Source: a virus
Virus record (IMG/VR): IMGVR_UViG_3300045988_180981
Location: 1 to 37,188 of that record
Direction: 5' to 3' (one strand)
Length of the DNA: 37,188 nt
Made by a program: the position numbers and the translations under genes. Below, in pieces: positions 2,400 to 37,188 of this stretch. Positions within the stretch are counted from its first letter, which is position 1, and each line of letters begins with the position of its first letter. The notes under the pieces are model-generated. The model was given only the letters and a program-made list of their open reading frames with translations, ran no database searches and had not been told where the DNA came from.

Positions 2400-2640
2400 C
2401 GTCAAACCAACGGGTTCAACGGCTAATCCAACGGTCAACGGTGACGGCCAACGGTGGTTTCAACGGCAACGGCAACGGTGACGGCCAACGGTGACGGCTA
2501 ACGGTGACGGCCAACGGCAACCGCTAACGGTAACGGCCAACGGCTACAGCAAACGGGTGGGGTAAACGGGAACGGCCAACGGTGGTTTTCTTTCCTCGTA
2601 CGGATAAAAGCAACGGCACGACCTAACGGTGACAACAACG
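2400..2640. repeat. Iteron-like array: about 20 copies of the pentamer AACGG, including four tandem 13-bp units AACGGTGACGGCC
   Basis: Counted by eye at 6-13-nt spacing. The distal part overlaps the 3' end of the rusA ORF. Confidence 0.7.
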
Positions 2641-3062
2641 GAGGGTGTCAAATCGTAGTGCTTCGCCATGCAAACATTAACCACTTGGGAATCGTCAACA
2701 AAGGCAATCCCATTCAATCCATCCAAAACGGCTTTCAAAACGTTGTCCAAGTCGGGCTTCTTCGTGGGCAATTCCTCACCGCTCAACTTCGCCAAGCCAT
2801 GCTTGTTCGGTTGCCCCTTCGAGTTGTAATCCGCCTTCTTCAAGCCGAACCACGCCATGACTTCCACCGCGATAGGCCCTGTGAGTGGCTTCGCCTCGGG
2901 GTACTTCTCCTTGAACTCATGGGCGAACCTCGCTTCGTAAGAGAGCGTTTTCGATGGGGTGTAAATGTGCGTGTGCCCCCCGAAGGAGGTTGCCCTAGGC
3001 CTTTGCTTTCCCATCGGCTCTCCCAAAACGTTAATCGTGTACTTAAATTCTTCTTCTGCCAT
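2544..3062 (-). CDS. rusA: RusA-family Holliday junction resolvase
   Basis: GKQRPR near the N-terminus and KPDLDNVLKAVLDGLNGIAFVDDSQV, which are RusA hallmarks. GAGGAG 10 nt upstream of the ATG at 3062. The C-terminus runs into the AACGG repeats, so the 3' extent is uncertain. Confidence 0.75.
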   Translation of the reverse strand: MAEEEFKYTINVLGEPMGKQRPRATSFGGHTHIYTPSKTLSYEARFAHEFKEKYPEAKPLTGPIAVEVMAWFGLKKADYNSKGQPNKHGLAKLSGEELPTKKPDLDNVLKAVLDGLNGIAFVDDSQVVNVCMAKHYDLTPSVVVTVRSCRCFYPYEERKPPLAVPVYPTRLL

Positions 3063-3076
3063 ATCTTCAAAACTCC

Positions 3077-3367
3077 TCAATAGCATTTATAACGCATTAT
3101 GTGGTTTTTATTCTCGTCCAAACCCTTCGATTCAAACCTTTCGAGCAATGTTGATTCTTTGATATTTCCTCGTGAGGTGTTTCGCACATCTTCGACTTTC
3201 AACAACTCAATGATTCCTTTGAACCCAGTGCTCATTTCCTGCTCGCACGTCTTGACGAAGCATAGGCTGGCGCCATCGCGGTCTTGCTCCTCATACTCGG
3301 TTACTTTGGTGAAGTCCGCGTATTCGGAAGTTGAGCGCACTATGTAATAAGGTACTTTCATTTCCAT
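3077..3367 (-). CDS. Hypothetical protein (~96 aa)
   Basis: AAGGAG 9 nt upstream of ATGGAAATG; start taken at the internal Met of track ORF 3077-3391. Confidence 0.55.
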   Translation of the reverse strand: MEMKVPYYIVRSTSEYADFTKVTEYEEQDRDGASLCFVKTCEQEMSTGFKGIIELLKVEDVRNTSRGNIKESTLLERFESKGLDENKNHIMRYKCY

Positions 3368-3486: not shown

Positions 3487-3945
3487 CTATTCCTTCCGCT
3501 CATTGCGCATGAGTTCATCCCAAACTTCTTGGTCGAACGTGTCGATGGACTTCACCGCCTTGGTTAGATTCCCATTGCGGATGTCGCCAATAGCACCGCT
3601 TTCCATCAATTCCCTCAAAGTCATTTTCGATGGCTTGTTGAAGATGAAGATAGGGCAATCTTTGTTGCACGCTATTCCCATGACGAACTCGCCCACGTTG
3701 CAAATCCCGATGTTGTGGCTACCCATGTTGTCATGGCCGATATTTCCATCGCCAACGTTGTAATCGCCAACGTTGTTCGATCCATAGTTGCCATTGCCTT
3801 TGTTTTGGCTTCCGTGGTTGCAATCGCCATGGTTGCAATCCCCAACGTTGAAGTCTCCCTCGTTCCAAGAGCCGTGGTTGCAATTGCCTCGGTTCTCAAC
3901 GCCCTTGTTGAGAGCGCCTAAGTTGTTGTCTCTAGTCTTGCTCAT
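3487..3945 (-). CDS. Pentapeptide-type beta-solenoid repeat protein: 17 consecutive N-x-G-x-x pentads; candidate DNA-mimic (Qnr/MfpA-like) protein
   Basis: Gly at residues 10,15,...,90 and Asn at 8,13,...,83 without a break. The 15-nt periodicity is also visible in the DNA. Start overlaps the upstream stop (ATGA at 3942-3945). Confidence 0.7.
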   Translation of the reverse strand: MSKTRDNNLGALNKGVENRGNCNHGSWNEGDFNVGDCNHGDCNHGSQNKGNGNYGSNNVGDYNVGDGNIGHDNMGSHNIGICNVGEFVMGIACNKDCPIFIFNKPSKMTLRELMESGAIGDIRNGNLTKAVKSIDTFDQEVWDELMRNERKE

Positions 3946-4933: not shown

Positions 4934-6379
4934 TCACAACAATTCTTTGAATATGTCCATCAGCACGTCCACAACGATGGAATCACCGGCGCAATGGTAT
5001 ATGGCAGAATCGCTCATCCCGATGGCGCGCATGGCTTGCTCGTCCTTGTCATTGAACCCCATGAGCCTCATGCATTCCAATGGGGTGAGTTTGCGAAGCT
5101 TCCCTTCGGATTGCGTGACAATGTCGATGGTTGTTTTAATCGTCTGGCTCATTCCGCTTTGCACGGTTCCGCGGTGGTATTGCATTCTCGTTCCACAATC
5201 GATTCCATCCCCTTCCTCGGCTTCTAGGTAACCCTTCTTGGTTGCGTTGCGGACGAGGATCTTCCCCATGAAGAACGGGGAAGTTGTGACACACGTGGAC
5301 AATCCGCCATCGCTGTAAACGCGATTGCCGAGCGATGGCTGCTTTCCATTCACCTTGGGGTTCAGGCATTCGGTGACAACCGTCCACCCAGAATCGAAAG
5401 AACCTTTGGCTTTTAATGTCCTTGCAACTCCCTTCTTCCCCGATTCTATGGAATTTTCGAAATCGCCTTTTCGGTCGAACCCCTTGGAATCTCCATAAAG
5501 CATGGTCTCAATAATTCTTGGGGATAGATTGTATTTTTGATCGGGGTTTTCCTCCAAAAGGTCGCGAAGCCTCTTGACGAGTTTCCTCTTCTTCGGGAAG
5601 TGGTATCCATATTCACCGAGAATGGAGACCATGAACACGCGGAGGCGGTTTTGGGGGATTCCATGGTCTTTGGCATTCACCTTCGCCCAATAGGAAGAAT
5701 ACCCAAGTTCCTCCAAGCGGTCTAGCCACTCGTTCCAAGGCTTGAGGTTTCTATCTCCGCAAACTCCGGGGACGTTCTCCATCAAGAGCACATCTGGCCT
5801 CTGCCCTGCTTCCTTAAGCTCACCGAGAAGCCTTTCGACCTCCCAAAGCAATCCCGACCTTGTGCCGCTACCCTTTTCCATGCCGGCCAATTTCCCCGCT
5901 TGGGAAAGGTCTTGGCATGGAAATGAATAAGTGAGAACGTAGCAATGCTGCCTATCTCCCTCCTTCTCGATGGATAAGCCGCTAGGGTGAATCTCCGAAA
6001 CGTTGGGGCAAAAGTCATTGCACGCGTCCATTGCTCCGCAAAGTTCCTCCAAAGCTTTTCTCCCCAATTTTTCCCTTTCTTCTTCCGATAGTGGGGAATT
6101 GTAATCCTTGGAAACACCGCAAGTTCTTTTTAAAAGTTCTTCCATTGGCGCTTCTTCCCACTTGCCTTTCTCGCACCTCCAGCCATTGTGGATTGCTGCG
6201 TAAGATCTAATGGAGGGAATTGCCCACTCGCACAAGCGCCATCTTTCAAAATCGGCATTGATGTTTTCCAAAGCTTTCGCTTGCGAACCAATACCACCGA
6301 ATAATTCGATGAGGCGGATTGGCTTGTTGATTTTGTATTCTCTTCTGCTTTGGGCGAACAGATTCAATTGCTCGTTCAT
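4934..6379 (-). CDS. DNA (cytosine-5) methyltransferase (orphan MTase, ~481 aa)
   Basis: Motif I LFGGIGS, motif IV SFPCQDLSQAG, motif VI LLMENVPG, motif VIII QNRLRVF, a long variable (TRD) region, then motif IX LTPLECMRLMGF and motif X GDSIVVDVL. Start at MNEQ, with GGAG upstream. Confidence 0.9.
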   Translation of the reverse strand: MNEQLNLFAQSRREYKINKPIRLIELFGGIGSQAKALENINADFERWRLCEWAIPSIRSYAAIHNGWRCEKGKWEEAPMEELLKRTCGVSKDYNSPLSEEEREKLGRKALEELCGAMDACNDFCPNVSEIHPSGLSIEKEGDRQHCYVLTYSFPCQDLSQAGKLAGMEKGSGTRSGLLWEVERLLGELKEAGQRPDVLLMENVPGVCGDRNLKPWNEWLDRLEELGYSSYWAKVNAKDHGIPQNRLRVFMVSILGEYGYHFPKKRKLVKRLRDLLEENPDQKYNLSPRIIETMLYGDSKGFDRKGDFENSIESGKKGVARTLKAKGSFDSGWTVVTECLNPKVNGKQPSLGNRVYSDGGLSTCVTTSPFFMGKILVRNATKKGYLEAEEGDGIDCGTRMQYHRGTVQSGMSQTIKTTIDIVTQSEGKLRKLTPLECMRLMGFNDKDEQAMRAIGMSDSAIYHCAGDSIVVDVLMDIFKELL

Positions 6380-6380
6380 T

Positions 6381-6659
6381 TTACTTGTCTCCAAAATCCC
6401 CGAAATATTCATCGACCCATGTTTTCAATCCCTTTATGATTTCGCGCTTTTTCCTAGCTATTTCCTCATAAGAGCCATTCCCTTTGTTTCCTTGAGGAAC
6501 ATAACTATATTCGGCAAGGCTTTCAATCATCATGTCAATCATGTTGCTAAGCAAATCCAAGTTCTTCACGCTCTCGGAATCATGGTTCGTTTCTCCCCAC
6601 CACGAAGTGTCGGGTATAAGCCTCTTTAAGGCCTCTAGAACAAATTCTTTGTCATTCAT
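6381..6659 (-). CDS. Hypothetical protein (92 aa)
   Basis: Minus-strand ORF packed against its neighbours. Confidence 0.5.
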   Translation of the reverse strand: MNDKEFVLEALKRLIPDTSWWGETNHDSESVKNLDLLSNMIDMMIESLAEYSYVPQGNKGNGSYEEIARKKREIIKGLKTWVDEYFGDFGDK

Positions 6660-9852: not shown

Positions 9853-10202
9853 GGTCTAGCCCTCTTAACGCTTGGGGCTTTTTGCTCAAGGATCTTAATC
9901 CTCTTATTGCCAACTATGTGGTAATGGATTGGCCACTTGGGTGGAATCCCGTGCCCCTTGAACGAAACCGTGCCCAACGGGAATAGGAGAATCGTCTTTG
10001 GGGTCATTTGGATGATTTCCGCATCATAGACCACGTAGCCGGACATTGGGCTTTTTGGACTTGTTCCCATGGACATTCGTACCGCAATCTTGATATATGG
10101 GCTTGTGAGGTCTTTTGGGCCAATGGAAGGAAGGGACTCGAACTCATCGTAAGCTTCTTGCTCAATCCCTTCCCTTTTCGCTCTATCAAATCCCATAGGC
10201 AT
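9846..10202 (-). CDS. Hypothetical protein (118 aa)
   Basis: Minus-strand ORF in operon context. Confidence 0.5.
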   Translation of the reverse strand: MPMGFDRAKREGIEQEAYDEFESLPSIGPKDLTSPYIKIAVRMSMGTSPKSPMSGYVVYDAEIIQMTPKTILLFPLGTVSFKGHGIPPKWPIHYHIVGNKRIKILEQKAPSVKRARPC

Positions 10203-10404
10203 CGAACCCCAGTAAATCTTTGAGAGCTTTGCGCAGAGGGCCGCTCATTTTGAAAACGCTTTTGTCACCATGCTCCAAATGGGTATAGTGGGAAATGGAA
10301 ACCCCAACGGCCTCCGCCACTTGCTCTTGGGTCATTCCCTTTTTTCTACGGGCTTCGGCCAAAGCCTTTCCCCCAAGTTTGTTTTTCTCTTGCAATCCGA
10401 TCAT
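10186..10404 (-). CDS. XRE-family helix-turn-helix transcriptional regulator (72 aa)
   Basis: MTQEQVAEAVGVSISHYTHLEHG is a classic HTH_3 signature; GAGGTGA SD. Confidence 0.8.
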   Translation of the reverse strand: MIGLQEKNKLGGKALAEARRKKGMTQEQVAEAVGVSISHYTHLEHGDKSVFKMSGPLRKALKDLLGFDAYGI

Positions 10405-12454: not shown

Positions 12455-12901
12455 CTAGTTGCAAGGGCTATTTTCCAAGTTTTCCACAAAGGAATCCACA
12501 AAGCGCTTGGCGAGCAATTCGCCCTCTTCGGCATTGTCCGCCATAATCCCTTGCCCGTCCTTGCGGATTTTCTTCGTAATGCAAGATACCTTCACCAAGG
12601 CTTTCATGGCTTTGTCTTTGAGGGTCTTGCGGTAGGCTAGCGTTTCCTCCAAGTTGCCCATGTGGTAGGTGAAGTTGTCGATGATTATTACTTTGTCCGC
12701 TCCCCAATCGCAATTGATGGCGGTTACATCGCTCCAGATTTGAAAGCATTTGTCATGCACCTTTGGGTTGTCGGAGTAATTGTAACCGTCCGAATAGGTC
12801 GCTTTCTGGTAGTTCGACACGATTTCCTCTTGGGTGGTGACTTTGCCTTGAAGAGAGTTTTTCAAGATGAGGTTGTAGGTCGCTAATTGTCTATTTGTCA
12901 T
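12455..12901 (-). CDS. Hypothetical protein (148 aa)
   Basis: Minus-strand ORF. Confidence 0.5.
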   Translation of the reverse strand: MTNRQLATYNLILKNSLQGKVTTQEEIVSNYQKATYSDGYNYSDNPKVHDKCFQIWSDVTAINCDWGADKVIIIDNFTYHMGNLEETLAYRKTLKDKAMKALVKVSCITKKIRKDGQGIMADNAEEGELLAKRFVDSFVENLENSPCN

Positions 12902-13448
12902 TTTCGTTCACCATTATCTTTTCGCCATCGGGCGTTTTCACCCAAATGGGCTTATCGTCTTTCAACATCACAATGTATTTCTCAACTGGCGGATAATATG
13001 GCATTGTTATCGGGAACATCTTGTTCACCAATCTCGAACCAACCGAGGAAATGAATGGTATTTTCTTGGGGTCTTCTTCGTCATAGCAAACAACCCTATC
13101 GACATCGTTGTAAGTCACTTTCCCATCAAGTGTTTCCCTTCTGAAAACGGAACACATCCTATTGCAAGAAAGATCGGATTTGAGACCCTGTTCTTTTAGG
13201 TAGCGTGGGTCTTCTTGCGTTATCCCCTCTTGGTCTAAAAAGTCTTCATCGACAATCGGGGTGAGGGGTAAGTCATTCAACAATCTCGTGAGAAGATGAG
13301 TAGTAATATTCCAACTAAATCCGCTATGGCTGTCTTTTGCCATCGACATAAACGCTCTTAAGGCGCTATCCGCACACATTTGTCCGTAAATGTCTTGTTT
13401 TTTCTTAAAGAGTTCGACTTCTCTTTTCGCTTCTTCGCTCATTGTCAT
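12891..13448 (-). CDS. Hypothetical protein (185 aa)
   Basis: AAAGGAG 8 nt upstream of ATGACAATG. Confidence 0.55.
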   Translation of the reverse strand: MTMSEEAKREVELFKKKQDIYGQMCADSALRAFMSMAKDSHSGFSWNITTHLLTRLLNDLPLTPIVDEDFLDQEGITQEDPRYLKEQGLKSDLSCNRMCSVFRRETLDGKVTYNDVDRVVCYDEEDPKKIPFISSVGSRLVNKMFPITMPYYPPVEKYIVMLKDDKPIWVKTPDGEKIMVNENDK

Positions 13449-25585: not shown

Positions 25586-26101
25586 TCACACCCCCTTCGT
25601 CAAAGTGTTGATTTGCGTATCGCCCAAAAGGGTTCGTTGCTCGTCCTTCGCCATATTGCTTCTCTCCCACGCTTCTTGCGTTAGAAACGCGTTGATGGAC
25701 GAAGAGATTGGGTGAATCACGTTTTTGATTCCCCTATCCAAGTTATCCCATTTCAATTTGGAGGAATAATCGCCAGTTTGAACCGACACGTAATTGTTGA
25801 TTGCCGTGGTGGTTTGTTCCGCTATTTGTAGGGTTTTGGCAAGTATTGCAACGCTGATGGAAGCCTTTACAAAAGCGCTCGTTCCATTTGAAAACAATTT
25901 GCCTACCGTATTCATTTGGCTCGAATACGGAACAAAGGAAGGAACGCGTTTGCCTCCTCCATCATTGGGTGGAGTTGGCTTCGTTCCGCCATTTCCCTTG
26001 TCGGAATCTCCGCCATAATCGGACGGGGCTTTCGGAGTGGTTTTCTTATTCTCTTGCTTTACGTTTTTGATGTAAATGTAGTAGGAACTATTGCTAGCCA
26101 T
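25586..26101 (-). CDS. Hypothetical structural protein (171 aa) with a Gly/Pro-rich N-terminal region
   Basis: Coupled to its neighbours. Confidence 0.45.
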   Translation of the reverse strand: MASNSSYYIYIKNVKQENKKTTPKAPSDYGGDSDKGNGGTKPTPPNDGGGKRVPSFVPYSSQMNTVGKLFSNGTSAFVKASISVAILAKTLQIAEQTTTAINNYVSVQTGDYSSKLKWDNLDRGIKNVIHPISSSINAFLTQEAWERSNMAKDEQRTLLGDTQINTLTKGV

Positions 26102-28704: not shown

Positions 28705-30150
28705 TTAAGCGGTGGCTTTGACGGAGGTCAAGGCAACAGAGCCATCATCGGAAATGACTAAGACGTTGATGAACTTGCTAGCCGTGATGGTGGAAGCGGT
28801 GGTCGCTCCTCCATTCAAGTAGGTCAAATCATCGTTGACATCATTGGCTTTGCAAGCCTTGTAGAAGTCCTCAACGGTTTCCACTGGAGCGTCGGTTTGG
28901 ACGTAGTGCCCAAGCATGACGTGGTTGGAATTAGCATCATCCATGGCGGTGGCGGTGACTTTGATTCCGCTCGTTTTGGAAGCGGTGACCGCTCCAAAGA
29001 CCGGGAAGAGACGGCTACCAGCGCCCTTCAATTTGAAGGAAATTCCGTTGAACTCACTATTCTTCTTTTCGAAGATGGTTTTGAGTTCGGAAAGGAATCC
29101 AACTTTGTCCGCGTTGCCGCGATACATAAGCGCGTTGCCGAGAGGATACCAAGACTTCACACCGAATTTGGTGAACGGTTGAAGGATGAATCCCTGCCCT
29201 GCGATAGCGTCAACGATTTTGGTGCTTTCAATCATGGAAACACCGCGAGCGGTGGCATAGTCGGAGGCAATGTAGCCAACGAAAGAGCCTTTCTTGAGTT
29301 CGGTGGACGGCATACCCAAGAACTCGGAAGCGTGGCGGAGGGATTCGTTGGAGATTCCGTGGCACGGAACTCCATCGATGTCACCCCAATATCCGTTCTC
29401 GGAAGTGGTGTCGCGAGCGCCTTCCGCGAGGGAACGTCCCTTCAAGATGGCTTGCGCGTAGTTAGAACCGCCAATTGATAGGATACCGGCCGCTTTCAAG
29501 ATGGGGCGGAAACCCATTTTGAATACCGCGATACGACCATTTTCGGGGAAAATGTCGATTCCGTGCGCATCGTCTCCTTCGTCCAAGAGGGAGTTTAGCT
29601 CGATGAAGCGTTGGGCAACATTTTTTTCCTTGATATCATCTTCGGAAATGTTGATTGCATTGTAGCCAGTTCCTTTAGCTTCGCCTTCCCAAGCACTTAA
29701 GAGGTGAGCTCCTGCGGTAGCGCCATTGATAACGGTGTTCAAATAGCGACCGTGTACGTCAACTTCCTTAGCGAGCATATCCACCTTGATGGTGTCTTGG
29801 CGAGCTCTCGGAACGAAGATGGGATCGTCCAAAACTTGGAGAATGTCGATACCAACTGTTTCAGTTTGGACGAAATGCTGGTCTTGGGAGAAAGAACCGC
29901 CATTTTTGGTAGCGCCCATTTCACGGGGCTTCATTTTGATCGGAACAATGCGGTTGACGAAGATTTGGGCGTTGGTGTTCGCTTCCTCTTCGGTCACGTA
30001 TTTGTCATTGACACCGCGACCCGCGGTCTCAATCAAGCCTTGGAACATATTTTCCAAAAGGGCTTGGGAAATTTTCGCTTCGGCACGAACGCGGTTAATG
30101 GAAGGCGCGTTATCGGGAGCGAGAATCTGTTGGATTACTTCGATAGCCAT
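28705..30150 (-). CDS. Major capsid protein candidate (481 aa), possibly with a C-terminal Ig-like decoration domain
   Basis: Sits after the scaffold gene and is followed by a terminator. Size and Gly/Ala-rich composition fit; no search was run. Confidence 0.55.
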   Translation of the reverse strand: MAIEVIQQILAPDNAPSINRVRAEAKISQALLENMFQGLIETAGRGVNDKYVTEEEANTNAQIFVNRIVPIKMKPREMGATKNGGSFSQDQHFVQTETVGIDILQVLDDPIFVPRARQDTIKVDMLAKEVDVHGRYLNTVINGATAGAHLLSAWEGEAKGTGYNAINISEDDIKEKNVAQRFIELNSLLDEGDDAHGIDIFPENGRIAVFKMGFRPILKAAGILSIGGSNYAQAILKGRSLAEGARDTTSENGYWGDIDGVPCHGISNESLRHASEFLGMPSTELKKGSFVGYIASDYATARGVSMIESTKIVDAIAGQGFILQPFTKFGVKSWYPLGNALMYRGNADKVGFLSELKTIFEKKNSEFNGISFKLKGAGSRLFPVFGAVTASKTSGIKVTATAMDDANSNHVMLGHYVQTDAPVETVEDFYKACKANDVNDDLTYLNGGATTASTITASKFINVLVISDDGSVALTSVKATA

Positions 30151-30169
30151 AATTTTATCCTACTTTCGT

Positions 30170-30727
30170 TTATCTCCTTCCGCGATTTAGTTTGTCGAGG
30201 GTTCTCGCAATTCCCTCATTCGTTCCGACTGATGGCGCGGAAGATCCACTCAAGCCAATGTCTTGGCCCTCATCGGTTTTGTCGCGAAGCACATTCGCGT
30301 CTCTCAACGCGGTGCGCAACGCTTCGTTTTCTTTCGCCATTCCGTCCAACGCTTTAGACAAAGATTCGATTTTGGTCATGACGGCCTCCATCGACACTGC
30401 GTTCTCGGGATTTCCAGCCTCAATTGTCGCTTCGGGGGTGACTGGTGTCGGAGCGCCCCCTGCTTCGGGGGTCTTATCTTCGGCTACGGGTGCTTCCGTT
30501 GCGGTCGGGGTTGGGGCGTTTTCGGTCGGCTCGGCTTCTTTGCCTTTCGCGCCTTCGGCTACTTCCGCTTGTGCGTTTTCATCCATTGGCTGGGCTTTTT
30601 CGGCTTTGCCTTCCATCGGGTCTTCGTCTTCATCGGGGGCGAAGAACGTTGCGAGTTCGTCTTCGGAAATGCCACCCTTCTCGATGAGTTTCCCGATTTT
30701 GCTTAGAAATTTTTCCTTGTTGTTCAT
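30170..30727 (-). CDS. Scaffolding protein candidate (185 aa): acidic, Pro/Ala/Glu-rich middle, helical C-terminus
   Basis: Composition and position directly upstream of the capsid gene. Confidence 0.45.
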   Translation of the reverse strand: MNNKEKFLSKIGKLIEKGGISEDELATFFAPDEDEDPMEGKAEKAQPMDENAQAEVAEGAKGKEAEPTENAPTPTATEAPVAEDKTPEAGGAPTPVTPEATIEAGNPENAVSMEAVMTKIESLSKALDGMAKENEALRTALRDANVLRDKTDEGQDIGLSGSSAPSVGTNEGIARTLDKLNRGRR

Positions 30728-30793
30728 GGAACAGCCTTTCTAACAAATGATTTTCGGCAGTCGCGCTTGGCGAGACCACCTATTGCCACGTGT

Positions 30794-30822
30794 ATTATAC
30801 ACTTTTTTAGACAATGCAACAA
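30794..30822 (-). promoter_or_regulatory. Promoter-like element TTGTTG-17 nt-TGTATAAT overlapping a 13-bp palindrome GTGTATTATACAC, immediately 3' of a terminator
   Basis: Reverse complement of 30794-30822. Confidence 0.4.
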
Positions 30823-30857
30823 AAAACCCGTTCTCCTGTGCAAGAACGGGCTTTTTC
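30821..30857 (-). terminator. Strong rho-independent terminator flanked by an A-tract and a T-tract, so it is formally bidirectional
   Basis: CCCGTTCT-8 nt-AGAACGGG (8-bp stem); UUUUUUGUU follows on the minus strand. Confidence 0.75.
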
Positions 30858-31089
30858 GCCATTCATCGGGTTGCAAATCCGACTTGTGGCTTCCCACCAA
30901 CGCGCCATGCGGAGGAAACAAAATAAAACTCAACATCGCGTTCAATGGGGTTTGTTGGCTTCGAGTCATGAGTATTGCGACTTTTTTTATGAACAAGACA
31001 TACAAGTTAAGAAAGGAGGTGGCGCTCCCGAAGCCAACGCTCATTAAGGAGATATTAGAACCACGTAGGTTGACTAGGCCTACAAGGAA

Positions 31090-31118
31090 ATAATATATCC
31101 TTAAAGGATATATTGCAA
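31090..31118 (-). promoter_or_regulatory. Sigma-A-like promoter TTGCAA-17 nt-TATTAT whose spacer is a perfect 23-bp palindrome AATATATCCTTAAAGGATATATT (31092-31114); operator-controlled promoter
   Basis: Read from the reverse complement; the palindrome was checked arm by arm. Confidence 0.55.
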
Positions 31119-31122
31119 CGCT

Positions 31123-31395
31123 TTATTGGTCGTCTTTCGCGGAAGCCCCGTATTTATTGACCGCTTCCTTGAAACCAACGGAGTTGTCCTTCGGCATTGG
31201 TTCGGCAAGTTGCCGTTCTTGGACGTGCTCCAACGGTCCAACGATTTGGATGGTTTGCCCATTGTATTCCACGGTCACAACCGCTTTCTTGGTCTCCGCA
31301 ACCTGCCGAGGTTGGGCTTTGTTGCCACTACCGAATTTCCCCGTGGAGGGGTCATAAGTTTGGAGTTTTCCTTTTCCACCGACTTTAACTGGCAT
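31123..31395 (-). CDS. Small hypothetical protein (90 aa)
   Basis: AGAGGTG SD. Confidence 0.5.
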   Translation of the reverse strand: MPVKVGGKGKLQTYDPSTGKFGSGNKAQPRQVAETKKAVVTVEYNGQTIQIVGPLEHVQERQLAEPMPKDNSVGFKEAVNKYGASAKDDQ

Positions 31396-31399
31396 AATT

Positions 31400-32320
31400 T
31401 CACACCTCTATTCTGTAGGAGTGCCATTGGTAGCCGTGCTTCTTGGCGAACGCTTTGTAGCGCTTCGTGGCTTCCTTGGCTTTGTTGGCATAGGTTTCCG
31501 CCAACTTCCTATCGATGTCATTATACAACTTTGCCATGCGCTTCAAATAGCGGATTTGCCGTTCCATCTCGCGCAACTTTGCTTCGATTTTCCGTTCCCT
31601 CTCCATTTCCTCGTCCGTGTAGGCCCTCGGTGGCTTAGAACCTTTCGTGTAGGGAATCAAATGGTGACGGCAATTGAAGCCGTTGATGATGTTGTTGTGG
31701 TATCCGTACTTATCGGTTTGAGCCATGATGGAAGGAAGCGAATACACCTCGTTCCCATCGACTTTCCTCCCCATCTTGAAGGACGGGTCTTTCGATTTAT
31801 TGCGGATGTCCACCAACTTTCCTTGCCACGGGGCGCAACGCTTCGAGCAATTCACGTGGGATGAGAGCCAACAAAGCGTATATCCGTGCTTCAATAGCGC
31901 GTCCAACTTCTTTTGTTGCTCCTCGGCCCTCAAATCGATTTCGGATTTCGCGAAAATGGAGATTTGGCGCTTCCCTTCCTCTTTGTGCGTGGGGTCTTTC
32001 ATCGCCTCCTCTTTGATTCTCTCGCGCAATTTCTTAGCGTAGGCCTTGCAATTCGGGTTTTGAACCAACTTTCGGTGCTTGGAAGCCTCCATAACGTTGT
32101 GGAACTCGGTCTTATTGAAATTGTCGATGAACTCTTTGGGGTTAGAAATTCCGTGCATTGCTTCCTTTTCGTCCTCTTTGAGTTTCTTGAAGTCCTTTTT
32201 GAGTGCTTTCACCTCCTCCAAGTCTTCAAAACCACCGCTACGAAGCCCTAAAACGAACCCTTTTCCGTCCTCGTAGGACAATCCAAGCCACTTTTCGGGG
32301 TTCGCGAGCAATGCGTTCAT
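31400..32320 (-). CDS. Minor head (head-morphogenesis) protein, SPP1 gp7 / Mu F-like, placed by position. Start uncertain; the ORF stays open to 32596.
   Basis: Basic, helical protein directly downstream of the portal gene with a Cys/His-containing core (NCRHHLIPY). Confidence 0.4.
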   Translation of the reverse strand: MNALLANPEKWLGLSYEDGKGFVLGLRSGGFEDLEEVKALKKDFKKLKEDEKEAMHGISNPKEFIDNFNKTEFHNVMEASKHRKLVQNPNCKAYAKKLRERIKEEAMKDPTHKEEGKRQISIFAKSEIDLRAEEQQKKLDALLKHGYTLCWLSSHVNCSKRCAPWQGKLVDIRNKSKDPSFKMGRKVDGNEVYSLPSIMAQTDKYGYHNNIINGFNCRHHLIPYTKGSKPPRAYTDEEMERERKIEAKLREMERQIRYLKRMAKLYNDIDRKLAETYANKAKEATKRYKAFAKKHGYQWHSYRIEV

Positions 32321-32417: not shown

Positions 32418-34202
32418 TCAGTTGAATATTTCTGGCTTTCCTTGCTTTTGCGTAGGGAAGGTGCTTCCGCGTAAATTGTTTCCGCCATTGTCGTCCTCGT
32501 TGTCATTGAAAATCGAATCCAAATTCGGGCCATCTTCGAGTTGGTTGCCTTGATCGGCTTCCTTTTGCATGGCGCTTTCGTCCATGATTCCGCCAAATTC
32601 GGCTTGGCGCTTCATCGCCTTGTCGATTTTTGCCCTCAAGGAAACCTCGTCCAAGTCGGGGTTCACCTCGCGTACGGCTTCCTCTAGGTCAATCAATCCC
32701 ATTTCGTATTCTTTCTCAACACGTGCGAGCAAGCGGTCTTTGTTCACCAAGGATGGATTGCCGAAGGTGAGAACCGCGTTGGCTTCTACTCCCAAGAAAT
32801 TTAGGGTGGTGTCGAGCAAGCGGTTGAACGGCTCAACGAAATAGGAGCGCTCTTGCTGGATGAACGCGATGGACATATCGTCCTCGGAATCGATTTGCGT
32901 TGCGGTTTGCTGGGCTTCCCCTTGCGACAAGTAAGAGGAGAGTGCTTTCGGGGTAGTTCCCCATTTCGTTGCGATGGCTTTTAGCGAATCGTCAATCATC
33001 TTTTGCCATTCAGTGGTTCGCAATTCGAATTGCTTCACGATGGCTTGTTGGGATTCCGCGTCCATGCCCTTCATGAGTTCAACGGGGGAATCCGGCAATC
33101 CGCCATACACGTTGGGCCGAACCATTGGGTTCGCTCCAACCAAGTCACCCATGCTCATGGATTTCGGCAAATATAGAGTGCCTTTCCCGAGGTAAGCGTC
33201 TCGCAGGCGGTACGCGTTCGCGATTTCGTAGTTGATTAAATCGCTTTGCACATCGATGATTTTCGATTTCCCGAAGCATTGGGCGGTAGGAACGGAAATG
33301 TCAATTTCACCGTCACGGCACACCTCAACTCCAAGATTCAAGAACGGAAGCGGTCTAGGCTCGTTCAAGCGGATAGCGCCGTAATCATTTCGGATTGCGT
33401 TCCGCAAGAATTTCGGCATTTCCGCCCATGGTACGCTAGCGCTCAAATCAGCATTGATCGGACCGTCCGTTTTGTTCAGCGTTTGCCCAGATGAGCGAAA
33501 CACTTTGTACGCAACCATTGGGATTTTCTCACCGACTTTGCGCACAACGCGGAGAGTTCCATCTGGCAATTCCTCGATTTTCCCCTCTTTCTCGGTCTCG
33601 TAGAAGCGCTTTTCGATGAGGTAATAGGAAGCCCGTTGACCGTCTCCCGTTGCCCTTGTGTCCGCGTAGTTGCGGATGAAAAAGGAAGCCTCTTGCACGC
33701 AACCGCGAAAATCGGTTGTGAAATAGCAATTGTCCAAGCGGACGGCTTCCCACCACGGCTTTCCATAGGCGGTTGAGTTCAATTTGATGAGGGAAGTCCC
33801 CGTGGTCATGGCGAAGGATACCGCCCCGTACATGGCTTTTCGGAACTCGCCTTCTTTGGAGATTTTGTCGCAAATCGCAACCGCGCTGTCTCCAACGTGG
33901 CATGGGTTCGTTCCCTTGTTCTTGAATATTGGCTTCTCACCGACCACTTGCTTCGCCATTCCCGATATGAGGGAAGTGGCGATACGCGTGGAAACGATTC
34001 CAAAGCCGTCTCCATGAAGCGCAGGCACGTATCCGTCCACCCATTGGCAACACGGAAGGACGTACTTTTGCGCGTAATCCTTCAAGTGGGACGGAACGAG
34101 CGCGCAAAAAAGATTCGATTGGTTGTTATACGAATAGGTGTTGTTAATCGCGAGTTGAAGGGAATTTTGGAACGTTCCCCATCCGCTTTTTTCTTCTTCC
34201 AT
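32418..34202 (-). CDS. Portal protein candidate (594 aa)
   Basis: Size, position after the large terminase gene, and an acidic C-terminal tail; AGGAG SD. Confidence 0.6.
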   Translation of the reverse strand: MEEEKSGWGTFQNSLQLAINNTYSYNNQSNLFCALVPSHLKDYAQKYVLPCCQWVDGYVPALHGDGFGIVSTRIATSLISGMAKQVVGEKPIFKNKGTNPCHVGDSAVAICDKISKEGEFRKAMYGAVSFAMTTGTSLIKLNSTAYGKPWWEAVRLDNCYFTTDFRGCVQEASFFIRNYADTRATGDGQRASYYLIEKRFYETEKEGKIEELPDGTLRVVRKVGEKIPMVAYKVFRSSGQTLNKTDGPINADLSASVPWAEMPKFLRNAIRNDYGAIRLNEPRPLPFLNLGVEVCRDGEIDISVPTAQCFGKSKIIDVQSDLINYEIANAYRLRDAYLGKGTLYLPKSMSMGDLVGANPMVRPNVYGGLPDSPVELMKGMDAESQQAIVKQFELRTTEWQKMIDDSLKAIATKWGTTPKALSSYLSQGEAQQTATQIDSEDDMSIAFIQQERSYFVEPFNRLLDTTLNFLGVEANAVLTFGNPSLVNKDRLLARVEKEYEMGLIDLEEAVREVNPDLDEVSLRAKIDKAMKRQAEFGGIMDESAMQKEADQGNQLEDGPNLDSIFNDNEDDNGGNNLRGSTFPTQKQGKPEIFN

Positions 34203-36950: not shown

Positions 36951-37069
36951 CTCGCGCACCCCCGTAGCGAATAGTTCATTTATTGAACAATCTATAACGC
37001 GTATGCGCACATATGCTCGCACGGGGCTAGGCGGAGTTATCTAGGGAATGGGAATTACTTAAGGAAATA

Positions 37070-37188
37070 CCAACATCGCACGCGCACACGGGCGATTTGG
37101 GATTTACGAAGTAAAGCCCATGAAAGTAATGCCACCGCGGAAAAAAGGGAAAAAAATTCGAAGGGGTTGGGTAGCCCCGAAAAAAAGG
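37070..37188. repeat. Right copy of the 119-bp direct terminal repeat. Either genuine terminal redundancy or overlap from a circular or circularly permuted assembly.
   Basis: Identical to 1-119. The window stops where the repeat stops, so the true repeat could be longer. Confidence 0.9.

Follow-up and report, generated by a model that had tools for sequence, protein, structure and literature searches.

The window analyzed here is the whole 37,188-nucleotide (nt) stretch of DNA in IMG/VR virus record IMGVR_UViG_3300045988_180981, a complete genome (circular assembly) of an uncultured gut phage with 37,069 unique bases. An exact 119-bp direct repeat at both window ends (1-119 and 37070-37188) shows the circular closure, and the minus strand holds essentially all genes. 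We describe a cassette in the 395-nt intergenic gap between p90, the final gene of the terS-terL-portal-MuF block, and the scaffold-like gene. The cassette comprises a promoter with a palindromic spacer (P1), a predicted non-coding RNA and an intrinsic terminator, and it is followed by a predicted second promoter (P2) and a 5' untranslated region (5'UTR) element ahead of the scaffold gene. In transcription order, the features of the gap and its borders are as follows.

31123..31395, minus strand: p90, an open reading frame (ORF) of 90 amino acids (aa), from the ORF list
31090..31118, minus strand: promoter P1, TTGCAA (31118-31113), 17 nt, TATTAT (31095-31090)
31092..31114, spanning the P1 spacer: perfect 23-bp palindrome AATATATCCTT-T-AAGGATATATT, candidate operator
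30821..31083, minus strand: predicted non-coding RNA of ~263 nt, from the inferred P1 start to the terminator U-tract
31065..31083, minus strand: 5'-terminal hairpin GUAGG-CCUAGUCAA-CCUAC at the inferred start, with an invariant stem
31027..31038, minus strand: 5' strand of helix H2, GUUGGCUUCGGG, a long-range helix enclosing the loop domain
31010..31021, minus strand: CACCUCCUUUCU in a ~39-nt loop, identical to the final 12 nt of the 3' tail of 16S rRNA of the Bacillus/Clostridium type
30954..30965, minus strand: 3' strand of helix H2, CUCGAAGCCAAC, pairing with 31027-31038
30893..30949, minus strand: long hairpin H4; its 19 pairs are formed in 100% of cells, and its apical loop is U-rich
30858..30890, minus strand: hairpin H5 (GCCAC...GGC), in which one pair is seen as CG, UA and AU
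30821..30856, minus strand: intrinsic terminator with A5/U6 extension
30794..30822, minus strand: predicted promoter P2 of the scaffold/capsid operon, TTGTTG-17-TATAAT
30751..30784, minus strand: 5'UTR element AAUAGG-[hairpin closed by GG:CC]-CCGAAAA, between P2 and the Shine-Dalgarno (SD) sequence of the scaffold gene
30725..30740, minus strand: scaffold SD GAAAGG (30740-30735) and ATG (30727)
30727-30170, minus strand: scaffold-like gene, from the ORF list

Promoter P1 and its palindrome

Capsid homologues led to 69 loci. The close relatives referred to below are 12 further metagenome sequences that carry the same intergenic unit and whose capsid proteins are 87-97% identical. An earlier note on this DNA had proposed a sigma-A-type promoter, TTGCAA-17-TATTAT, and this promoter-like site is present on the minus strand (31118-31090) and conserved in the close relatives. 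Neither the hexamers nor the spacer vary across the 12 aligned sequences (13 with the window), save for the central base of the palindrome, and transcription would start near G31083. Promoters also occupy the equivalent place in other relatives, namely TTGACA-17-TATAAT in L031, TTGACT-17-TACAAT in L056 and TTGCTT-16-TATAAT in L030; those of L031 and L056 are consensus-grade.

The palindrome that the same note had described as the P1 spacer is real. Its 11-nt arms are separated by 1 nt and are 100% complementary. No perfect palindrome in the genome is longer, and this one appeared in 0/100 and 0/2000 shuffles. The term spacer is roughly right, since the palindrome covers the spacer together with the last 2 nt of the -35 hexamer and the first 4 nt of the -10 hexamer. 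Among the close relatives the central base flips between T and A, and the remainder is invariant. Read as RNA, the palindrome gives a weak hairpin (-8.9 kcal/mol); as DNA, it is plausibly the operator of a dimeric DNA-binding protein. Further copies, which would point to a regulon, were looked for, and the genome contains no second copy even at 3 mismatches. The only recognizable DNA-binding regulator in the genome is a 72-aa HTH_3 (Cro/XRE-type) protein encoded at 10186-10404 (minus strand), which is a candidate binder of the P1 palindrome.

The terminator

The terminator consists of CCCGTTCT (30850-30843), the loop TGCACAGG, AGAACGGG (30834-30827) and T6 (30826-30821), that is, a G+C-rich hairpin directly before a U-tract, as expected of an intrinsic terminator. 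The 8-bp stem contains 5 G:C pairs, closes a loop of 8 nt and is lengthened by an upstream A5 tract; the calculated stability is -15.6 kcal/mol for the hairpin and -21.0 kcal/mol with the A/U extension. Owing to the A-tract, the terminator is also readable on the plus strand. The 8-bp-stem terminator with U6 reported earlier was thus found at 30850-30821, with its stem kept and its loop free to vary in the relatives, and B-, C- and D-type relatives carry an unrelated canonical terminator at the same place. The window has no G+C-rich terminator between p90 and P1, and the 30821-30850 hairpin would end both the P1 RNA and the upstream packaging/portal operon.

The predicted RNA lacks coding potential and has a conserved fold

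The earlier description of a ~260-nt leader devoid of SD-led ORFs was borne out: the RNA contains no SD-led ORF of at least 10 aa, save for two that begin at TTG, and for these the 'SD' is part of the terminator stem. ORFs without such a signal do exist, and a small protein could in principle be encoded by a 106-aa minus-strand ORF (30724-31044) or by plus-strand ORFs at 30767-31093 and 30814-31047. The TGA of the 106-aa ORF overlaps the scaffold ATG (ATGA), which looks like translational coupling; however, this TGA follows automatically from the Met-Asn start of the scaffold protein (ATGAAC). The ATG at 31044 is not preceded by an SD, the ORF would cross both the terminator hairpin and P2, and Pfam and PHROGs returned no match for these ORFs. 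Moreover, the close relatives differ at many places in the RNA body by indels of 1, 2 and 4 nt, and these shift or destroy the frames, which rules out the minus-strand ORF as well as the plus-strand ORFs and leaves a coding role highly improbable. A pseudogene of the accessory genes of relatives was also considered and rejected, as tblastn found nothing in 30728-31122 and the RNA region has no protein-level similarity to the genes that fill this slot in relatives.

The single-sequence fold of the window RNA has a free energy of -85.1 kcal/mol (z = -2.55). A consensus structure was calculated with RNAalifold on ten distinct close-relative sequences and contains 66 pairs; 98.6% of cells were paired, compared with 39-49% when the partners were slid. 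In helix H2, all 10 pairs were formed in 100% of cells and 2 showed compensatory changes (GC to AU; AU/GC/GU). The apical stem of H4 exists in three fully paired versions, AUGUUGAG/CUCCGCAU, GUGUUGAG/CUCAACAC and AUGUUGG/CCAACAU. In total, compensatory changes were found in 5 pairs, with double changes in 12 cells, and 0/500 shuffles reached the observed count of double-change cells or the observed covariation score. In addition, variable columns were much rarer at paired than at unpaired positions (23/132 vs 65/140, p = 3e-7), and 1 gapped column was paired vs 16 unpaired. A hairpin likewise begins 4-7 nt past the -10 hexamer in L030, L035, L031 and L056. Taken as a general description of a structured non-coding RNA, a conserved secondary structure with no coding potential appears to apply here, with support that is modest in depth.

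Known RNA families gave no counterpart. Rfam produced no gathering-threshold match in the whole window, and at E up to 10 the segment 30650-31250 returned only terminator-driven matches of 14-21 bits against cut-offs of 40-80; a tRNA/tmRNA scan returned none.

Rates of change were compared with three close relatives. The 395-nt unit showed substitution rates of 0.046, 0.066 and 0.13, and four-fold degenerate sites of p90, scaffold and capsid genes in the same genomes showed 0.095-0.28. The unit therefore evolves 2-3 times more slowly, indicating that it is under purifying selection.

These results bear on the explanation that there is no functional RNA at all, and that the region consists of the 3'UTR and terminator of the packaging/portal operon plus DNA signals, conserved through recent ancestry or as DNA-binding sites. 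Upstream transcripts must indeed cross the region, given the terminator arrangement described above, and the most invariant block among the close relatives is formed by P1, the palindrome and the 5' hairpin. The close relatives also constitute a narrow clade in which the structure is supported by few independent changes. Nevertheless, the slow evolution extends over the whole 395 nt, and the changes avoid helices or compensate within them. Furthermore, B- and C-type relatives have a separate G+C-rich terminator between the p90 homologue and the unit promoter, so the unit there is clearly autonomous and cannot be a 3'UTR. We consider it unlikely that the region lacks a functional RNA.

The unit occupies a variable slot

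In distant relatives (capsid 59-72% identical), the RNA body shows little similarity, and strong similarity sets in after the terminator. Analogous units were found in L030, L035, L037, L057, L031, L056, L062 and probably L015. Their sequences are unalignable, and their layout is the same: a promoter, a 5' hairpin, 100-370 nt of structured non-coding sequence, a canonical terminator and then P2. On sequence comparison, these cassettes are positional analogues and not demonstrable homologues. An exact-pattern scan of IMG/VR with an invariant 19-mer of the RNA returned only one contig, which was already known.

In other loci the slot has a different content. It holds only a terminator before P2 in L016 and L013 and one or two protein genes in L061 and L062, and it is absent from L011 and L014, where there is no gap at all; in L032 a 60-nt insertion separates the terminator from P2. 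From this distribution, the P1-RNA-terminator unit is best described as an add-on in a variable slot. It has its own promoter and terminator, lies between conserved genes and is absent or replaced in some relatives, as is typical of morons. With its conservation in relatives taken into account, the unit as a whole stands well above chance.

P2 and a conserved 5'UTR element precede the scaffold gene

The -35 hexamer of P2 overlaps the terminator T-tract by 2 nt. TTGTTG-17-TATAAT has a single match in the genome, where 0.01 is expected. P2 is conserved as TTGTTG/TTGTTT with TATAAT/TACAAT in L031, L032 and L061 and as TTGACA-17-TAACAT in L030 and L035, and its -10 block is conserved in distant relatives as GTGTATAAT. 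The earlier note had reported a second promoter-like element overlapping another palindrome. Both are real; the promoter is, however, better read as TTGTTG-17-TATAAT than as TTGCAT with a 14-nt spacer, and the palindrome GTGTATAATACAC is present in the window and the close relatives and not kept in L031 and L032.

The 5'UTR element lies outside the interval given in the earlier note. Ahead of the scaffold gene it is met again in relatives with as little as 44-49% capsid identity (L013, L015, L016 and L062), and it is also found in L030-L032, L035, L056 and L061. Its hairpin sequence varies by lineage, and 13/14 of those tested fold with the closing GG:CC, L015 being the one that does not. On a structure-blind MAFFT alignment, 71% of cells pair, vs 33-48% when slid. 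Rfam contains no match to the element. The hairpin is probably an mRNA 5' stabilizer or a protein-binding site. As P2 and the 5'UTR are kept in relatives that lack the upstream unit, scaffold/capsid transcription would be independent of terminator read-through; on these conserved signals, the scaffold/capsid operon is assigned its own promoter, P2. The real expression signals of this operon can now be defined as P2 plus the AAUAGG-hairpin-CCGAA 5'UTR, conserved across very diverged relatives.

This arrangement weighs on the proposal in the earlier note that the cassette resembles lambda pR'-6S-tR', so that P1, the leader and the terminator would form a switch in which a phage factor (Q-type, or a put-like leader RNA) drives read-through into the scaffold, capsid and tail genes. 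The layout does resemble pR'-tR', in that late genes are directly preceded by a strong terminator, and this in turn by a promoter and a short non-coding transcript. Lambda Q binds pR' between the -35 and -10 hexamers, and the window has a palindrome resembling a protein-binding site between those of P1; on inspection, the first 25 nt of the transcript show no convincing -10-like element of the lambda pause type. In addition, the leader is structured and conserved, and most early proteins are unannotated, which leaves room for an unrecognized factor. The conserved P2 and 5'UTR between the terminator and the scaffold gene, kept in relatives without the upstream unit, nevertheless argue against the switch, as does the position of the cassette, which falls midway through the late module, behind terS, terL, portal and MuF and not ahead of terS, the wrong place for a master late switch. 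The earlier statement that no Q-like protein could be recognized was confirmed by scans of p90 and 48 other ORFs against PHROGs, Pfam or both, which found no Q, N, sigma or ArpU/RinA family; many of these ORFs had no match of any kind. p90, the upstream neighbour, has no family match in Pfam or PHROGs. It has homologues of 79-90 aa at the equivalent place in relatives (47-51% identity in L032 and L061). Its candidacy as a regulator was dropped, as only close homologues could be retrieved and the sequence looks largely unstructured. Moreover, the leader sequence is not conserved beyond the close relatives and has no Rfam match. The Q-type antiterminator model was therefore set aside as unlikely, and a new antitermination device independent of Q is likewise improbable.

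A second possibility is that the RNA is a cis-acting attenuator or riboswitch-like leader that senses a ligand, a protein or temperature and sets whether P1 transcription terminates or adds to P2 expression, the short RNA being a by-product. A promoter, a ~230-nt structured leader, a terminator and a gene form the classic layout of such a device, and abundant prematurely terminated 5'UTR RNAs have been seen in phages (PMC10914365). The recurrence of analogous units at the exact position in diverged relatives also fits a site-tied role. On inspection, however, the 5' arm of the terminator had no alternative antiterminator partner, the best upstream complement being 6/9 nt and locked in the 19-bp H4. 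A T-box or riboswitch was rejected on this ground and on the family searches, in which no riboswitch, T-box or leader family matched at E up to 10, bar the terminator-driven noise. In addition, P2 makes such control unnecessary, and protein genes fill the slot in some relatives. We give the attenuator a small chance.

A loop matches the 3' tail of 16S rRNA

The mature 16S rRNA tail sequence of B. subtilis and clostridia is GAUCACCUCCUUUCU (PMC5732282, PMC3025663). Within the loop domain enclosed by H2, CCUCCUUUCU is invariant in all close relatives and the remainder of the loop is variable. This 10-mer is predicted to be unpaired, and it occurs just once in the genome, both strands counted. 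Among the positional analogues, L035 (B-type) carries CCUCCUUUCUA in a hairpin loop. The match suggests pairing with SD regions. In the window, the anti-SD loop can be paired with the ribosome-binding site of the scaffold gene over ~10 bp, interrupted by a bulge. A specific interaction of the two was dropped because, on inspection, the pairing does not co-vary in L035.

It is also conceivable, and in our view rather improbable, that the RNA is a phage-made mimic of the 16S rRNA 3' tail that vies with ribosomes for SD sequences cell-wide, or a decoy for a host factor or defence nuclease that recognizes the 16S tail. If this were true and the mimic RNA abundant, translation would be skewed towards or away from strongly SD-led messages, with host shut-off or a temporal switch as the result.

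Proposed role of the cassette

Taken together, we favour, as somewhat probable, an autonomous non-coding RNA gene of the moron type, placed in a variable slot immediately ahead of the scaffold/capsid operon signals. As its second option, the earlier note had offered a stable small RNA, which would have a promoter of its own and the terminator as its end, and it is this option that the present analysis prefers: the unit is conserved, non-coding and structurally constrained. In the proposed mechanism, a host sigma-A-type RNA polymerase would start near 31083 and stop at 30821-30826 to give a discrete ~263-nt RNA, stabilized by the 5'-terminal hairpin and the terminator hairpin. The same terminator would end the terS-to-p90 operon and insulate P2. 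A dimeric DNA-binding protein would time P1 by using the palindrome as its operator. The RNA may act in trans by base pairing through the large loop, with the invariant CCUCCUUUCU extending to CACCUCCUUUCU in the window, and the loop may thereby occlude the ribosome-binding sites on mRNAs of the host or the phage, in the manner of the C-rich loops found in small RNAs (sRNAs) of Firmicutes. P2 would drive the scaffold/capsid operon through the conserved 5'UTR hairpin.

Several observations weigh against an autonomous RNA gene with this mode of action. The start site, 3' end, abundance and timing of the RNA are all inferred. The P1 hexamers by themselves are at chance level (9/12 matches; 10 such sites vs 9.4 expected in 11 kb), and the case for P1 is therefore made by its conservation. 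The spacer palindrome is significant only in the close relatives and L031, and its conservation in all relatives was accordingly rejected. With respect to the fold, the number of covarying pairs lies within the shuffle range (50/500), and the covariation is drawn from about five lineages within a single narrow clade, in an alignment that had also been used to predict the structure. When all 69 loci were searched with an nhmmer profile built on the close-relative RNA, only the close relatives matched, and the recurrence of unalignable analogues at one position could point to a site-tied, that is, cis-acting, function.

The remaining points concern the loop. One genome copy of the anti-SD 10-mer arises in 20% of shuffles, and the match was noticed after the fact. 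L057 (B-type) has lost the motif from its loop, and the C-type RNAs carry CCUCC only, which is not significant. Duplex prediction with the loop alone returned generic strong SDs only, such as those of the genes starting at 26101 and 20339, and duplex prediction with the whole RNA against phage start regions did not exceed the random background.

Should the 16S-tail-like loop prove functional, this would be a phage RNA acting on translation initiation. If it does not, the analysis still corrects the reading of the region as a lambda-like late switch. The small RNAs of phages of Gram-positive gut bacteria have hardly been explored, and the unit offers a concrete candidate whose ends are defined, whose fold is conserved and for which an operator and a seed can be proposed.

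Genome context

The genes that flank the cassette, identified from the ORF list and family scans except where stated, are the following.

36979-36161, minus strand: terS
36164-34710, minus strand: terL
34202-32418, minus strand: portal
end at 31400, minus strand: MuF/minor-capsid-2 protein gene
30150-28705, minus strand: presumed major capsid gene, 481 aa, with a conserved position after the scaffold-like gene

Head-tail and tail genes come after the capsid gene in transcription order. The longest MuF ORF (TTG at 32596) overlaps the portal gene by 179 nt (32418-32596). MuF gene calls in relatives begin later (273-324 aa), and the true MuF start is probably downstream. The 481-aa presumed capsid protein has >300 metagenomic homologues, yet it matches neither Pfam nor PHROGs.

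TerL is <=25% identical to TerL of any GenBank phage, the nearest records being Firmicutes phages, and blastn of 30000-32000 against 50,697 phage records returned no match. Relatives come only from gut, rumen and similar metagenomes. The unit thus belongs to a clade without a cultured relative, and the host group is probably Firmicutes. A capsid homologue with 50% identity lies on a 2.6-kb contig (L005, NZ_JAZNAN010000036.1) that had been binned into a Methanobrevibacter metagenome-assembled genome. The archaeal host that this binning would imply was rejected on the strength of the G+C content of the window (41-53% per kb) and of the bacterial promoters, SDs and intrinsic terminators throughout it; the contig is probably mis-binned.

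Outside the cassette, two further places show a terminator followed by a promoter on the minus strand. At 15615-15534, a hairpin (15615-15597) precedes a perfect TTGACA-18-TATAAT. At 8813-8747, a hairpin (8813-8798) precedes TTGCAA-16-TATAAT, with more promoter-like sites just upstream (8898-8843). The genome appears to be divided into several sigma-A-type transcription units. The terminator that follows the last early gene (1004-984) is separated from terS by a region of ~1.1 kb without convincing ORFs (1-1020 and 36980-37069). This region has long pyrimidine-rich tracts on the minus strand, with 69% purine on the plus strand at 121-420 and repeated TTCCCC-like runs, and it could be a packaging site, an origin or another non-coding transcript.

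In the early region, a 185-aa protein encoded at 12891-13448 (minus strand) matches Pfam Tad3, a type I Thoeris inhibitor (E = 6e-15), and on this match is likely the product of an anti-defence gene. A 152-aa pentapeptide-repeat protein (Pfam Pentapeptide_2, E = 3e-19) is encoded at 3487-3945 (minus strand), near a DNA methyltransferase (4934-6412) and a RusA-like resolvase (2544-3086).

Comparison with known systems

Compared with lambda pR'-6S-tR', the cassette shares a promoter, a terminated ~200-260-nt non-coding transcript, a location by late genes and a possible protein site between -35 and -10. It differs in that a conserved promoter follows the terminator and the position is mid-module, with no Q homologue found and no pause-inducing element identified.

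C-rich-loop trans-acting sRNAs of Firmicutes (RsaE/RoxS, RNAIII and LhrC) pair with Shine-Dalgarno regions. The predicted RNA resembles them in carrying a C-rich anti-SD-like motif in a loop, in ending at an intrinsic terminator and in its predicted occlusion of ribosome-binding sites. Those sRNAs use UCCC or C-runs in several copies, whereas here there is one strong 10-12-nt copy of the 16S tail; the RNA described here is also phage-encoded and has no homology to them.

In Pseudomonas phages, ONT-cappable-seq revealed short terminator-ended 5'UTR RNAs, including one upstream of the YuA major head gene (PMC10914365). The arrangement is alike, with a promoter, a structured non-coding transcript and a terminator before head genes, and in both cases conservation is confined to close relatives. 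In the Pseudomonas phages the same promoter drives the downstream gene by read-through, whereas a separate conserved P2 follows the terminator here. The Pseudomonas phage RNAs were observed experimentally, and the present RNA is predicted; the sequences and the host group (probably Firmicutes here) are unrelated.

By definition, a moron carries a promoter and a terminator of its own (PMC3594210), and prophage sRNAs have been located at moron sites (PMC4104026). Like morons of the HK97 gene 15 type and the sRNAs AsxR and AgvB of lambdoid prophages in enterohaemorrhagic Escherichia coli (EHEC), the cassette forms an independent unit between conserved phage genes. Unlike in those systems, there is no integrase or other lysogeny marker among the annotated genes of this phage. 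The EHEC anti-sRNAs are 51-60 nt long, compared with ~263 nt here, and there is no sequence relationship; atypical G+C is often cited for morons, whereas the G+C of the cassette is no different from that of its surroundings. As in morons, one slot receives different cargo across related phages, either an RNA unit or one to two protein genes, and in the window the cargo is a predicted non-coding RNA. The RNA would represent an unannotated sequence family within a kind of unit that is already known.

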